Shown here in pieces: positions 59,157-64,000 of a DNA stretch of 64,000 bases (its first letter is position 1; each line of letters opens with the position of its first letter). The notes beneath the pieces are model-generated. The model had not been told where the DNA came from, did no database searches, and worked only from the letters and a program-made list of their open reading frames with translations. Made by a program: the position numbers and the translations under genes. The DNA is taken from assembly GCA_000092065.1 (NCBI GenBank), contig CP000581.1, one strand, 5' to 3'. The DNA is from Ostreococcus lucimarinus. Its lineage: Eukaryota.

Positions 59157-60620
59157 CTAGTCCTCCCTCGAAGGTTTCTTCTTATCCGCGGCGACGTAGC
59201 CGCTTCGCGTGCTCATGAGGGAGGTGTCCTTTCGCACGACTTCATCCTTGGCGGTGGTGATTTTAGCGGCGCGGCCCTTCTCGCCGTATGCATGCGTGAG
59301 CATGGATTTCCACGTGCGCGTGTCGGTATCTTGCGAACGCCATCCATCTTTGGATTGCGCGGAGCTTCCCGGATCGTTGCCGTCGCCGAGCATGAGCGCG
59401 GGGACGGCTTTGTCGATGGTGCCGAGCCGAGCCTCAGCTTTGAGCAATTCTGCCTTGTCGCTACCGTTCACGCCAGAGTTGAAATCTAAAGAAAGCGATG
59501 GCGTCGTCGGGTACGCGCGTTGCGCGTACGTCATCAAACGCTTGACGCTTTGCAGGTATTTCCGTGTCTCTTCGTCGTGCATGGCGTGCGCTTGCGACGA
59601 CGCGCCAATCTTCTCTCGGGCGCTACGGGCGTGGATACCGACCATTGTAACCCCGATAGGCCACGCAGCGTTGCCGATCGCAATTCCGACGTACGCGTCG
59701 GCGGCTTTCTTGTAATTTCTTTGCTTCATCGCTTGCATGATGAGGTAAAGAGCGCGCTCAACGTCGCCGGGAAGCAAACGACGCTTGATGCGCTTAAACA
59801 GTGGCTTCAAATGCTGCTTCAACGTGCGAAACGTCGAAATCGATTGACGACCTTCGTGAGTGTAGCACCACTCCTCAGACTTCGCGTCGAGCTCGGCTTC
59901 CCACTCCGCGACGAGAGATTTGAAGTACGCAGCCACTTGGTCTATGGGTTCCTTGTCCTCGGCCTCGCGTTGCTTCTTCAGCTTTTGCGCCGCTTTCGCG
60001 AACGCGTCCATGAGTGCTTTCTCCTCGACTACCTCAGGCTCATCATCATCGACGACTTCCGCGCCTCCATCGCCCGCGACGCCCTTTAGCGACCTTTCTT
60101 TCGCCTTTAAGCTCTGTTCCTTCTTCTTTCGCGCGAACGCCTCGACGTGCTCGGCGTCCAACAACTTTTCATTCACCTGCGTCGCCGTCGTCGTCGTCTC
60201 GTCCACGATCGCGAAATTTTTCGTCGCCACTTTCAATCGAAAAATCCTATCCTCCCTCGTCTCCCCGAACATCGTCGCCGGTTGCCCGAGCGTGCGCAAC
60301 CGCGCCACGGCTTCGTCGTTCGTCAACGCGTCCAGCGCCGCGTCCGCCTCTTCGTCCTCCAGCACGCGCGTCACCACCGCCGCCGTCGCCGCGATCGCTT
60401 TTCCATCATCCTCGCGCGCGCGTTTCGCCCCCGTCACCCTCCCCGCGCCGTCCGCGTCCGCGTCGGCGCCGTCGTTTTCCCCATCCACCGGCGCCGCCGA
60501 CGCCTCGCGCTGAAGATCGCCGCGTCGGGCGTACTTCTTCCCGCCGCTCGACGACGCCGCCGCCGCGCGCGCCGCGCGTTCGGCTCTCAACCGCGCGATC
60601 TCCGCGCTCGCGATGTCCAT
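59157..60620 (-). CDS. PRP18: Pre-mRNA splicing factor Prp18 (PRP4/SFM motif + Prp18 domain)
   Basis: ATG 60620. SFM-type motif EAVARLRTLGQPATMFGETREDRIFRL; Prp18 core ...EWCYTHEGRQSISTFRTLKQHLKPLFKRIKRRLLPGDVERALYLIMQAMKQRNYKKAADAYVGIAIGNAAWPIGVTMVGIHARSAREKIGASSQAHAMHDEETRKYLQSVKRLMTYAQRAYPTTPS. Confidence 0.75.
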   Translation of the reverse strand: MDIASAEIARLRAERAARAAAASSSGGKKYARRGDLQREASAAPVDGENDGADADADGAGRVTGAKRAREDDGKAIAATAAVVTRVLEDEEADAALDALTNDEAVARLRTLGQPATMFGETREDRIFRLKVATKNFAIVDETTTTATQVNEKLLDAEHVEAFARKKKEQSLKAKERSLKGVAGDGGAEVVDDDEPEVVEEKALMDAFAKAAQKLKKQREAEDKEPIDQVAAYFKSLVAEWEAELDAKSEEWCYTHEGRQSISTFRTLKQHLKPLFKRIKRRLLPGDVERALYLIMQAMKQRNYKKAADAYVGIAIGNAAWPIGVTMVGIHARSAREKIGASSQAHAMHDEETRKYLQSVKRLMTYAQRAYPTTPSLSLDFNSGVNGSDKAELLKAEARLGTIDKAVPALMLGDGNDPGSSAQSKDGWRSQDTDTRTWKSMLTHAYGEKGRAAKITTAKDEVVRKDTSLMSTRSGYVAADKKKPSRED

Positions 60621-60733
60621 CGCGCGCCGCGTCGTCGTGTGCGGCGTCGCGCGGATTCGTCAGACTGTTTGCCCACGGGGCTGATTTTCCCGCCAAACGC
60701 GGTGTCGAGTTTGAATCGGCGTCACTCCCGCGC

Positions 60734-61993
60734 ATGCTGTCGCGCGAAGGCCGCAAGACGATCGCCGACGTCACGCGCGCGCGAACGATCGAAAGCCTGA
60801 CGAACGGTCTGCGACGAATGCTGGGACACGCGCGAGGCGTGCACGCGACGACGACGCGATCGAGCGAAATGAGAACGATGCGACACTTGAAGAAGATTAC
60901 CGCGACGATTCGCGGCGCGACGACGCCGTTGCGCGCGACGCGCGCGCAGACGACGGGTCGGGAACACGCGAGACGGACGTTTGCGGCGCAGGCGCAGTTT
61001 GTGAATAACCGGGGGTCGTACACGCCCGCGGGACCGAGGTCGGCGCGCGCGCAATCGTACGGAGGAGATCCGCAGACGCAGACGACGGCGCCGCCGAGCG
61101 TCGTCACGTGGACGCCGGAATTGGCGAACTCGGTGACGATCATCGGTAACGTCGGCGCTGATCCGGAGATTCGGCACTTCTCCAGCGGAACGTGCGTGGC
61201 GAACGTGCGATTGGCTGTGAACGGCGGGCGTAAAGCCGAAATGACGGACGGCGCCGTGGAGGAGGACAAGACGAACTGGTTTGCGGTGGACATTTGGGGC
61301 GAGGAGGCGATGCGCATGGCCGAACACGTGAGTAAGGGCAAGACGATTTGCGTGCAAGGTCAGTTGAAGACGGACACGTGGACGGACAAAGACACAGGGG
61401 CACCGCGTTCCCGAGTGAAGATTGTGGCGAAAAACTTTTCCTTTGTGCAGAGCGCCAAGGCGCAGCAAGGTGGTGGTGGCTACGGGCAGCAACAACAATC
61501 TGGTGGCTACGGCAGCGACATGGCCCCAGCTGCGACGCGCCAACAGTCATCGCCGCCGCCGCAACAGCGCCAGCAACCGCCGCAACAGACAGGCATGCCC
61601 CCGGGCGCGTCTCCGAAGGAGGCGCTCTGGCGTTCGCTCGCCGAGGCTCCGGACACGTGGTGGGACAACCGCGATCGAAAGTCTCAACCAGGTGCAAACC
61701 CACGTTCGCCTGATTTCAAGCATAAGGAAACCGGCGAGGCGTTGTGGGTCGAAAGCCGTGATACTCCCGCGTGGGTGCTGGAAACGTTGGGCGGCGGCGC
61801 GCAACAATCGAGGCAGCAGGACTCGGACGCGTACACGGGCGCCTCCAATCCGGCGGCGTATGAACCGGACTATAACCAACCGTACGGTACGCAAGTCCCG
61901 CAAGCTCAGTATGCCGGTGGTTACCAACCGCTCGACAACGACGGTTACGAGCCTGTCGAGCAACACTTCAACCAAGACGACCCACCGTTTTAA
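60734..61993 (+). CDS. Organellar single-stranded DNA-binding protein of the plant OSB family (SSB-like OB fold + C-terminal PDF motif), Q/G-rich linker
   Basis: ORF 60014.. is antisense to Prp18 until 60620; ATG 60734 (MLSREGRKTIADVTRARTIESL... presequence). OB fold: VTWTPELANSVTIIGNVGADPEIRHFSSGTCVANVRLAVNGG...NWFAVDIWGEEAMRMAEHVSKGKTICVQGQLKTDTWTDKDTGAPRSRVKIVAKNFSFV; PDF motif: EALWRSLAEAPDTWWDNRDRKSQPGANPRSPDFKHKETGEALWVESRDTPAWV. Confidence 0.7.
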   Translation: MLSREGRKTIADVTRARTIESLTNGLRRMLGHARGVHATTTRSSEMRTMRHLKKITATIRGATTPLRATRAQTTGREHARRTFAAQAQFVNNRGSYTPAGPRSARAQSYGGDPQTQTTAPPSVVTWTPELANSVTIIGNVGADPEIRHFSSGTCVANVRLAVNGGRKAEMTDGAVEEDKTNWFAVDIWGEEAMRMAEHVSKGKTICVQGQLKTDTWTDKDTGAPRSRVKIVAKNFSFVQSAKAQQGGGGYGQQQQSGGYGSDMAPAATRQQSSPPPQQRQQPPQQTGMPPGASPKEALWRSLAEAPDTWWDNRDRKSQPGANPRSPDFKHKETGEALWVESRDTPAWVLETLGGGAQQSRQQDSDAYTGASNPAAYEPDYNQPYGTQVPQAQYAGGYQPLDNDGYEPVEQHFNQDDPPF

Positions 61994-62100
61994 GCGCCCG
62001 CCGATGACCTACAAGATTTTACCAACAAAAGCGAAAGTTTTAACGAATTGTGAATAAAAAGGAACGCTCGCTCGATTAAATATTGCAAAGTCTACGTTCT

Positions 62101-64000
62101 CTACTTGCCGCCAGCGGTCATCCGCGTGCCGTAATGCATGCTCACTGCGTTGTCAATGTCCTCTTGCGCACACCCCGCTTCGTGGAAGTTTTCGAGCGCC
62201 TCGTCGAGCATCGACTTCCATTCCTTTCCTAAGCGAGCCGCCAATTGTGATTGCTCGAAGAGCGTATTACCAAGCATGACGCGCACTTGTCCCTTCGTCG
62301 ATGGCTCCTCGTCCGTGGGTGGTTCGTCGCCCCGCGCGACGGCTTCGTCCACGAGCGCTTGGAACGCCGCCTTTTCCTCCTCAGTCTTTTCCCTCGGGAC
62401 TTCGTCCGGCAAGGTGGCAAACACAGCCTTGTAATCCGCCACGGCTCCGACGAATTCGGCCTCTGCTTCTGCAATGCGCTTTTTAGCATCGTGACCCTTG
62501 GCTACCTTACCCTCATCGCCGCTCATGCCGGCGGCGGCGCTGAGCAGACGCGAGCGCTCGTAGCGACGCTGCGCCAACGCGATGTGCGAATCGTGGTGAT
62601 CCGGCTTGATCACGATCGCTTCCTCGAATCGTTCCTTAGCAAGACCGATGAGTCGTTCGACTTCATCGAACTCATCCGCGATGGCGATGGCAGATCCCGG
62701 AGGACCGCCCTGCTCCTTCGCCGGTTCGCGACCGCCGTCCATCTTCTTGCGCGCTTCGCACATGTGCACGTTGCCCCAATTAAAGATGGTCGCCGCGGCG
62801 CAGGCTTGGAACTTCTCGATGGCAGCATCTCGAATTTCCTTTGCTTCTTCGTCCGTCAAGCTCGTACCACTTGCGAGATCGTTGGACAAGTTCGTACCCT
62901 AAGAGACGCGAAAAACGAGAAAATTGTCAGTCGAGAATTCGTCGTCGCGCCTTCGTGGTCGAGATTGAAACCATCGACCCCCAGCAAAGAAGCTCACGAT
63001 AGGAGCGAAAGACATTTGCAAAAACATTAATCACGGAAATCAGTGAAGTAGTAAGTTTTTTGTATCGTCATCGCTTCTTTGCACGATGAGAGCCGCGATT
63101 GTTTCGCACGTCGTGCGCTATTCGAAAGAAAACGTACCTCGTGGTGAAGGTCCAAGTGGCCCTCTGCGTCGATGCCGAGATGTTCGCGGAACAAGGAAGA
63201 AAAGTCCAAAATCCATTCATCGATCTCGACGACCTCGTTCGGCGCCAGGCCAACCGGGTTGCCATCTTCGTCGACGACCTCGATGTCTTCAACCTTGGGC
63301 AACTCTTGAATCATGAGCTTGACGTACGGGATGAGTGGGGGCTTTTCCATCGCCCGCAAACGCGTCGAGGTGGCGTAGATGGACTTTTGAAAGTCGTTTC
63401 GCGACTGAACATTCTTCACGTTGCCTTCTTCGTCTTCGTACTTGATCGAAAACTGCCCCGCGAACGCAAACTTGGTCGCAATGCTCGTCTGCAAGTCCTT
63501 GAAACCGATTGTAGACCACACGCTGAACATGCGCACGTCGTCCCCGAACGCCGCCTTGACCAGAATCGACGGCGGGTCCGCCACGCGCTCTTTCGCCTGC
63601 GCCGCGTATCGCGCTTCCGCTTCCGCTCTTCGCGCATCCTCTCCCGCATCACCATCGCCCTTCTTCGCGCCCTTCTTACCCTTCTTCCCGGGCGCGAGGG
63701 TCATCCCTCCCAACCCCGCCGGCGCCCCCGCCTTGCTCGTCCCGTTGAGCGCGTCCAGCGCATCCTTCGCGTCCGTGTAGCTCGGTTCGATCTCGATCAC
63801 GCTCTGCAAATCTCTTTTCGCCTTACCGACCTGTCCCAACTGCATGTACGCCTGCGCCCTGTGCCAATACGCCTTATAACTCTTCCCGTCCAGCGCCAGC
63901 GCGCGGCTCGCCTCCGCCACGACGTCCGCGTAGCACTGCATCTTCGAAAAGCACGCCGCTCGATTACTGTGAATCATCGCCCGCGTCTGATCGCGTTCGG
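62101..64000 (-). CDS. TPR + PB1 (Phox/Bem1p) domain protein, 5'-truncated by window end; exons >64000..63138 and 62898..62101, 239-nt intron GTACGT...TTAG
   Basis: Upstream ORF (63027..63977, open to window edge) has TPR helices (NRAACFSKMQCYADVVAEASRALALDGKSYKAYWHRAQAYMQLGQVGKAKRDLQSVIEIEP) and PB1 fold (VKAAFGDDVRMFSVWSTIGFKDLQTSIATKFAFAGQFSIKYEDEEGNVKNV); reading ...GHLDLHHE is followed by gtacgt at c.63137, and ORF tail after that is junk with stop. Downstream ORF 62101..62889 (track start is TTG) joins in phase 0 after cttag: GTNLSNDLASGTSLTDEEAKEIRD...IVIKPDHHDSHIALAQRRYERSRL...HYGTRMTAGGK*. Confidence 0.6.

Follow-up and report, generated by a model that had tools for sequence, protein, structure and literature searches.

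Did the OSB proteins, single-stranded DNA binders of organelles recognized by their PDF motif, arise with land plants or with the green lineage as a whole? OSBs have been treated as a plant-specific innovation guarding the recombination-prone organelle genomes of land plants. The question is raised by a gene at 60734..61993 (+) in a 64,000-nucleotide stretch of the Ostreococcus lucimarinus genome (assembly GCA_000092065.1, contig CP000581.1), hereafter the window. The initial annotation of this DNA described the gene product as an OSB-type protein in a picoalga, with a bacterial-type SSB OB fold, a Q/G-rich linker and a clear PDF motif. The coding sequence for this 419-residue protein, delimited from the open reading frame (ORF) list and from colinearity with homologues, is one uninterrupted intron-less ORF of 419 codons, the coordinates including the stop codon. 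We consider it likely that this is a nuclear gene whose product, targeted to an organelle, belongs to the OSB family and has an ancestral look, with one PDF mini-domain set into the disordered tail of a bacterial-type SSB and the acidic C-terminal tip kept.

The PDF motif occupies aa 293-352 (SPKEALWRSLAEAPDTWWDNRDRKSQPGANPRSPDFKHKETGEALWVESRDTPAWVLETL; 61610..61789, +), as delimited by alignments, a hidden Markov model (HMM) and AlphaFold2 (AF2) prediction, and it occurs in one copy, C-terminal to the OB fold. To avoid circularity the HMM was made from 31 copies in named land-plant proteins only. It scores the Ostreococcus protein at 76.3 bits (E 1.1e-16 in a search space of 1.84 billion sequences); because the block reaches 76 bits against a profile that holds only land-plant sequences, we take it to be homologous to the land-plant PDF rather than a chance tripeptide. 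Whole-protein phmmer searches match land-plant proteins named OSB2-like or OSB4, from Macadamia (E 4e-26), Olea (1.6e-19) and Euphorbia (9e-18), the Olea alignment being confined to the PDF region at 54% identity. The block is 42-61% identical to 16 other PDF copies, and the 17 agree without exception in ten columns (W, D, R, K, P-D-F, K, W and P). A four-residue insertion in the motif, QPGA, is seen in Ostreococcus and Micromonas-like homologues.

Conservation was compared at four distances: within Ostreococcus, to Micromonas-like proteins, to other green-algal-like proteins and to land plants. PDF identity at these distances is 91, 61, 59 and 53%; for the OB fold the figures are 91, 48, 39 and 37%, and for the linker that precedes the motif (linker 1) 55, 23, 20 and 10%. 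At each of these distances the protein has no better conserved region than the PDF motif. AF2 predicts two confidently folded domains, the OB fold and the PDF block, separated by disorder. In the full model the PDF block has a predicted local distance difference test score (pLDDT) of 86-95; predicted by itself, with 68 diverse copies, it reaches a pLDDT of 90.2 and a predicted template modelling score of 0.76. The predicted topology is that of a small alpha/beta domain: a long helix leads into a short strand and a helical turn, after which come two short strands and, at the C-terminus, a helix. No relative of this fold was found among solved structures.

One could still suppose that the block is a chance resemblance in the low-complexity tail of an ordinary SSB, since the linkers on both sides of it are indeed low-complexity sequence. 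Against this are the E-value of 1e-16 with the land-plant-only profile, the ten invariant columns in 17 copies, the pLDDT of 90, and the conservation of the block within Ostreococcus at 91%, as against 55% for the preceding linker. We regard the idea as refuted and give it practically no weight; the PDF motif reported by the initial annotation is genuine.

The OB fold lies at aa 131-240 (61124..61453, +), as judged by Pfam PF00436, by SSBs in the PDB and by a pLDDT of 90-95. SSB (PF00436) is the single Pfam domain found, at aa 132-237 with 87.5 bits (E 7.3e-25) against a gathering cut-off of 26, and PHROG 44, ‘single strand DNA binding protein’, matches the protein at E 2e-33. E. coli-type homotetrameric SSBs are the best PDB matches (E 1e-15 to 3e-19). 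In E. coli SSB, the aromatics W40, W54, F60 and W88 stack on single-stranded DNA (ssDNA), and H55 is a tetramer-interface residue. In an alignment to 7f2n, the equivalents of W54, F60 and W88 are retained as W182, W188 and W216. The bacterial-type OB fold of the initial annotation is thus borne out (Pfam E 7e-25, with E. coli-type SSBs leading the PDB matches).

Mitochondrial-type SSBs are also organellar OB-fold ssDNA binders and tetramers, but they lack the PDF motif, and human mtSSB matches the protein at only 23.6 bits (E 2e-4), compared with about 65 bits for E. coli SSB. Given this weak match and the presence of the PDF motif and the acidic tip, we rejected the mitochondrial type, in a comparison made with human mtSSB; no plant mtSSB1 appeared among the nine matches of a word-indexed search with the OB fold only. 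The initial annotation had named grouping with mitochondrial SSB1 proteins as a finding that would speak against its reading; the bit scores, and a short motif shared with other OSBs, do not bear such a grouping out.

This short motif, which we call the lead motif, lies directly upstream of the OB fold (TAPPSVVTWTPEL, aa 118-130; 61085..61123, +). Its consensus, P-x-x-[VI]-x-[WFY]-x4-[AC]N[ST]V-x-[LI]IG, is common to algal and land-plant PDF-bearing proteins and absent from bacterial SSBs; equivalent segments read APPSVVTWTPELANSV in our protein, YPRPTEIPWKKELCNSV in Macadamia, WPRPTEIPYQAKVANSV in Olea and TPEPELVEFAPERANSV in Prasinoderma. When the OB region only is used as a BLASTP query, the alignments with OSBs run from position 4 of the fragment onwards, and those with bacterial SSBs from position 15, 11 residues later. 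Upstream of the lead motif, the N-terminal extension (aa 1-117; 60734..61084, +) was delimited by composition, pLDDT and low conservation. It is R/T/A-rich, with 22 K+R against 6 D+E (net charge +16), is predicted to be disordered (pLDDT < 50), varies in length among homologues and is only 46% identical within Ostreococcus. We presume from these properties that it is an organelle-targeting presequence.

Linker 1 (aa 241-292; 61454..61609, +), recognized by composition and a pLDDT of 42-54, is the Q/G-rich linker of the initial annotation; it is disordered, Q/G/P-rich and variable in length among homologues. Linker 2 (aa 353-410; 61790..61963, +), recognized by composition, pLDDT and alignment, is disordered, acidic and Q/Y-rich. 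Within it the block AYEPDYNQPYG (aa 375-385, nt 61856-61888) is kept in Ostreococcus and Micromonas-like homologues. It follows the pattern AYEPDY(N/S)QPYG, and a second tail block, at aa 404-412 (nt 61943..61969), follows the pattern GYEP..(Q/K).F. Both are conserved in Ostreococcus and Micromonas-like homologues and absent from land plants, and they may be additional linear interaction motifs.

The protein ends in an acidic tip, HFNQDDPPF (aa 411-419; 61964..61990, +), defined by an alignment of 31 homologues across which P418 and F419 are nearly invariant. The C-terminal segment with the tip is 78% identical within Ostreococcus. Neither linker 2 nor this tip figures in the initial annotation. 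Variants in algae are DDPPF, DEPPF, EEIPF, DDIPF and KDPPF, and in land plants TPF or TPY; all but one incomplete sequence among the 30 homologues colinear with our protein end in PF or PY, with acidic residues preceding in the algae. Counting the OB-plus-PDF proteins retrieved at that stage of the analysis, an ending in [PIT]P[FY] marks 87 of 92 single-PDF proteins and 3 of 75 that carry two or more PDFs. One bacterial SSB among the OB-fold matches ends DMDDDIPF. The tip of bacterial SSBs (DDDIPF) recruits partner proteins, and by analogy the DDPPF tip may do so too. Since the algal form keeps the acidic tip together with a canonical OB fold, it ties OSBs structurally to bacterial SSB.

How the protein relates to known systems follows from these parts. 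The nearest land-plant relatives are single-PDF proteins named ‘OSB2, chloroplastic-like’ (Macadamia integrifolia, Helianthus annuus), probably the ‘Group I’ of a published classification (PMC13393729). These share a transit-peptide-like N-terminus, the lead motif P-x-x-[VI]-x-W, the OB fold, a linker, one PDF that is about 50% identical to that of Ostreococcus and a short tail, which ends TPF or TPY, and in an OB-only comparison they are 36% identical over 124 aa. They differ in the loss of the acidic residues before PF, in the absence of an equivalent of W88 (W216 in our protein), in much shorter linkers, and in having neither the four-residue PDF insertion nor the AYEPDY block. Arabidopsis OSB1-4 (AT1G47720, AT4G20010, AT5G44785, AT1G31010) are, by description, alike in transit peptide, OB-like domain and PDF motif or motifs, and differ in that their OB-like domain is poorly conserved, their PDF copies number from one to four and no acidic tip is reported for them. 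Arabidopsis OSBs are organellar, bind ssDNA and suppress illegitimate recombination and microhomology-mediated end joining (MMEJ) (literature including PMC6963530 and PMC6451138). The initial annotation had likened the protein to OSB1-4 in particular; the family likeness stands, with single-PDF ‘OSB2-like’ proteins rather than necessarily Arabidopsis OSB1-4 as the closest land-plant forms.

With the bacterial homotetrameric SSBs of PF00436 the protein shares an OB fold, 37-41% identical to those of beta- and gamma-proteobacteria and retaining three of the four stacking aromatics, as well as a G/Q/P-rich linker that is disordered and an acidic tip ending PF. Bacterial SSBs lack a presequence, lead motif and PDF, whereas our protein is nuclear-encoded, with a 117-aa extension and a folded PDF in its tail. 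As far as sequence can tell, then, it has the OB fold, the PDF C-terminal to it and the transit-peptide-like extension of an OSB; it likewise has the OB fold, linker and tip of a bacterial SSB, and departs from that class in being neither prokaryotic nor free of an extra domain. It is not a new kind of system.

The identity of the host agrees with the earlier description: a 120-aa NCBI entry from O. lucimarinus CCE9901 (‘predicted protein, partial’) is 100% identical to the overlapping 114 aa of our OB query in BLASTP. This public fragment corresponds to aa 132-251 (61127..61486 of the window); it starts NSVTIIG without a methionine and ends inside linker 1, so it keeps the OB fold only and leaves out the presequence, the PDF motif and the tip. 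A 2014 review lists in its table for O. lucimarinus an ‘SSB 10587’, partial and without an initiator methionine, and ‘OSB: N.D.’, and its conclusion puts the gain of OSB later than the divergence of Chlorophyta (PMC4166229). That no-OSB entry probably arose because the gene model is an OB-only fragment. The same review, citing the 2006 discovery paper, places PDF motifs in green plants ‘including Chlamydomonas’ (PMC4166229), and a 2026 phylogenomic study that sampled one chlorophyte describes C. reinhardtii as without OSB and dates the family after that split. The literature on OSB in chlorophytes is inconsistent rather than silent. Hence the initial annotation's remark that the motif has been considered plant-specific holds in part: the 2014 table and the 2026 paper leave chlorophytes without OSB, while the 2014 review itself reports the motif in a group that includes Chlamydomonas.

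The O. tauri orthologue has been public in full length (XP_003074572.1 / Q01FS1), with PDF and DDPPF, under the name ‘Primosome PriB/single-strand DNA-binding’ only. It is 380 aa long compared with 419 (39 shorter overall), has a shorter N-terminal extension and is 92% identical in the OB domain; the 90% cluster representative is 72% identical overall. This orthologue and the mention of green-algal PDF motifs in 2006 are thus already known. What is new is a mis-annotated OSB member, with ancestral-looking architecture, in a lineage where two papers deny the family. The gene model of O. lucimarinus calls for correction, and the proteins of Ostreococcus for re-annotation as OSB.

The family is not confined to Ostreococcus within the algae. 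The 30 colinear homologues comprise Ostreococcus-like, Micromonas-like and several marine green-algal-like groups and two land plants; the same architecture is found in O. tauri, in a cluster that holds a Micromonas pusilla protein, and in many marine metagenome relatives. Prasinodermophyta are the deepest green branch, and a protein of Prasinoderma coloniale (EukProt EP00793_P002252) has a presequence, lead motif, OB fold (PF00436, 25.9 bits), three PDFs and an acidic tip, ending ...GEDIPF. Since orthologues occur in O. tauri, Micromonas and Prasinoderma, we place OSB at the base of Viridiplantae; multi-PDF OSBs and the acidic tip would both be ancient, because Prasinoderma has both.

Ostreococcus proteins score 86-87 bits on the Pfam SSB model, single-PDF land-plant proteins 54-66, and OSB4-like ones 17 or nothing, a gradient that fits an ancestral, less derived OB fold in the algae. 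Similarity of the OB fold only is even in the two directions, 36% to Macadamia OSB2-like (124 aa) and 37% to a beta-proteobacterial SSB. The simplest reading of these sequences is one ancient origin at the base of Viridiplantae, with the algal protein nearest the starting state and the land-plant OB folds derived. Common descent of the algal and land-plant OB folds appears well supported, though not proven, on the basis of colinear architecture, the lead motif, graded similarity and this evenness of the OB fold.

Two observations concern the Chlamydomonadales. In Sanguina aurantia MEW5307983.1 a degenerate OB-like N-terminus is followed by five PDFs, and Astrephomene gubernaculifera GFR51244.1 has four PDFs and an undetectable OB fold. 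Because members of this order carry proteins with four or five PDFs, the reported absence of OSB from C. reinhardtii may reflect divergence of the OB fold or the search criteria used. That reported absence is also the only argument we found for a recent horizontal transfer of the gene from a streptophyte, or for contamination of the assembly, either of which would make the locus uninformative on the age of the family. In many independent assemblies, and on contigs as long as 1.15 Mb, the gene has nuclear genes typical of Ostreococcus around it; its GC content at third codon positions (GC3), 73%, is in line with a GC-rich window (62% overall). Divergence is graded through O. tauri, Micromonas-like proteins and Prasinoderma, PDF proteins occur in Chlamydomonadales as well, and every land-plant OSB tested has a more derived OB fold. 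Transfer or contamination is therefore highly improbable.

With descent within the green lineage as the preferred account, the full OSB architecture stands at the base of that lineage, including algae with tiny, compact organelle genomes. Since the architecture is already basal, adaptation to land, or to mitochondrial genomes that are large and repeat-rich, cannot account for the origin of OSB. The algal protein also offers a simple single-copy system for finding what a PDF adds to an SSB.

For the function of the protein we propose the following. The basic N-terminal extension would direct import into the chloroplast, the mitochondrion or both. The OB fold would oligomerize, probably as a tetramer like bacterial SSB and AtOSB2, and is expected from its sequence to bind ssDNA through W182, W188 and W216. 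The PDF domain, on its flexible linker, would add a second high-affinity ssDNA contact, by analogy with AtOSB1, in which PDF is reported to mediate ssDNA binding (PMC6963530); the DDPPF tip, by analogy with bacterial SSB, would dock organellar replication or repair partners. The protein would probably serve as a general organellar SSB whose tight coating of resected ssDNA limits illegitimate and microhomology-mediated recombination, as land-plant OSBs do; a role in recombination surveillance for the Ostreococcus protein is thus suggested by analogy. AtOSB2 is a tetramer with a dissociation constant of ~10 nM that needs no more than a 10-nt overhang for binding and blocks MMEJ driven by a polymerase (PMC6451138). 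A housekeeping role is probable because the published survey lists no other bacterial-type SSB in O. lucimarinus (PMC4166229).

Several points weigh against this proposal. In the 7f2n alignment the E. coli residues W40 and H55 correspond to R166 and F183, and DNA binding and tetramerization through the OB fold are therefore plausible but unproven. The OB fold of AtOSB1 was reported to be without DNA binding on its own (PMC6963530). AtOSB2 does not bind the organellar polymerase, which mtSSB1 does bind (PMC6451138), and this makes a recruiting role for the tip a conjecture. Organellar localization is predicted from N-terminal composition, and the true start codon is uncertain, since it could be M1, M29, M46 or M49. 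The notion of a sole organellar SSB rests on the published table (PMC4166229), and it relies further on entry 10587 of that table being, as is probable, the NCBI fragment and hence the window gene.

Some of these points would suit a protein more like AtOSB1, a specialist in recombination surveillance whose OB fold serves only as an oligomeric scaffold while the PDF does all the ssDNA binding and some other protein is the housekeeping SSB. The reported behaviour of the AtOSB1 domains (PMC6963530), the substituted equivalents of W40 and H55, and the stronger conservation of PDF than of the OB fold across lineages all speak for it. Yet the algal OB fold scores 87 bits where OSB4-like proteins of land plants other than Arabidopsis give 17 or no match, three of four stacking aromatics and the acidic tip are kept, and the published survey has no other bacterial-type SSB in O. 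lucimarinus to fill the housekeeping role. Because the algal OB fold is so canonical we rate the specialist below a general SSB, and think it rather improbable without being far-fetched. A different possibility is that PDF is mainly a protein-protein or RNA-binding module, making the protein an ordinary SSB with an adaptor domain. Here the predicted fold has no solved relative and so no structural tie to DNA, and PDF repeats are found in OB-less proteins of dinoflagellates and volvocaleans and, in plants, in fusions with RNA-binding pentatricopeptide repeats (PPRs). Published biochemistry nevertheless assigns ssDNA binding to PDF, the residues conserved in it (W, F, R, K, H) are of the aromatic and basic kinds typically seen on surfaces that bind ssDNA, and a phage protein with a PDF C-terminus is encoded between nuclease and helicase genes, a place expected for an SSB or annealing protein. 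An adaptor role for PDF is, on balance, quite unlikely. The general organellar SSB with an added PDF contact is the reading that we retain.

The PDF motif was also followed beyond the green OSBs. A HMMER search with the PDF profile matched 1449 representative proteins at E <= 1e-3; details were taken from the best 150 of these, all of them multi-copy proteins, so single-copy algal forms are not enumerated there. Among those 150, Kingdonia uniflora KAF6142360.1 has 13 copies. A 62-aa PDF alignment searched against a 5.8-billion-protein database returned only proteins of <=109 aa, mostly land-plant fragments, and is uninformative on taxonomic spread. Dinoflagellates have proteins with 4-9 tandem PDFs, hydrophobic signal-peptide-like N-termini and no OB fold, examples being Effrenium voratum CAJ1451737.1 and CAJ1390558-61 and a protein of Biecheleria cincta (EukProt EP00930); many metagenomic proteins resemble them. 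As dinoflagellates carry such tandem-PDF proteins, the motif is not confined to Viridiplantae. In plants PDF is found fused to long PPR arrays, the proteins noted here including one of 1371 aa and, separately, Adiantum capillus-veneris KAI5061374.1, and to kinesin-like and ICR2-like proteins (Coptis, Striga), these last fusions being possible gene-model artefacts.

A scan of 185,579 prokaryotic species genomes with a strict pattern, confirmed by tblastn, gave no credible PDF motif. The scan detects exact matches to [PE][KRN]xPDFKHK, a pattern derived from one PDF alignment (A1), another (A3) being too divergent for scans. Its sole match was JAPOKO010000092.1, a 536-bp sequence labelled ‘MAG: bacterium isolate bin92’, whose PDF is 66% identical to that of Ostreococcus; we rejected it as a bacterial PDF, since it is most likely algal contamination of a bacterial bin. 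For the phage protein with a PDF C-terminus, neither PHROG nor Pfam gave a family and INPHARED gave no relative. A more far-reaching proposal can be made, which we put forward tentatively and consider doubtful: that the Ostreococcus protein represents the founding OSB state, in which PDF was inserted into a complete bacterial SSB tail before the first split of Viridiplantae, and that PDF itself is an older mobile ssDNA-binding mini-domain, its fold absent from solved structures, shared with dinoflagellates and phage and of an origin outside plants, e.g. by phage or bacterial capture.

The surroundings of the gene are those of a eukaryotic nuclear chromosome, as judged from its PPR, PRP18 and tetratricopeptide repeat (TPR)/PB1 neighbours. 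An identical 419-aa product is predicted on four independent metagenome contigs (12.8-131 kb), on all of which the gene order is constant: PPR protein, PRP18-like splicing factor, OSB gene, 262-aa protein and TPR/PB1 protein. GC3 of the OSB gene compares with 54% at second codon positions. The divergent neighbour in the window is the PRP18-like gene (59157..60620, -), identified by its Pfam PRP4/Prp18 domains. The 113 bp between the two genes (60621..60733), delimited from the ORF list and the sequence, were read directly and contain no further ATG; they are presumed to hold a bidirectional promoter and the 5′ untranslated region. Downstream, a 107-bp 3′ intergenic region (61994..62100), read directly from the sequence, is AT-richer, contains an AATAAA and is common to the OSB gene and a convergent gene at 62101..62889 (-). 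The 262-aa product of the latter has no Pfam match, and its position is kept on four of four related contigs. Three long ORFs overlap the OSB gene in antisense or alternative frames (60406..61341, 60722..61543 and 61140..61703, all -; 187-311 aa); we rejected them as genes, their R/A/P-rich translations being typical of spurious ORFs at 62% GC.

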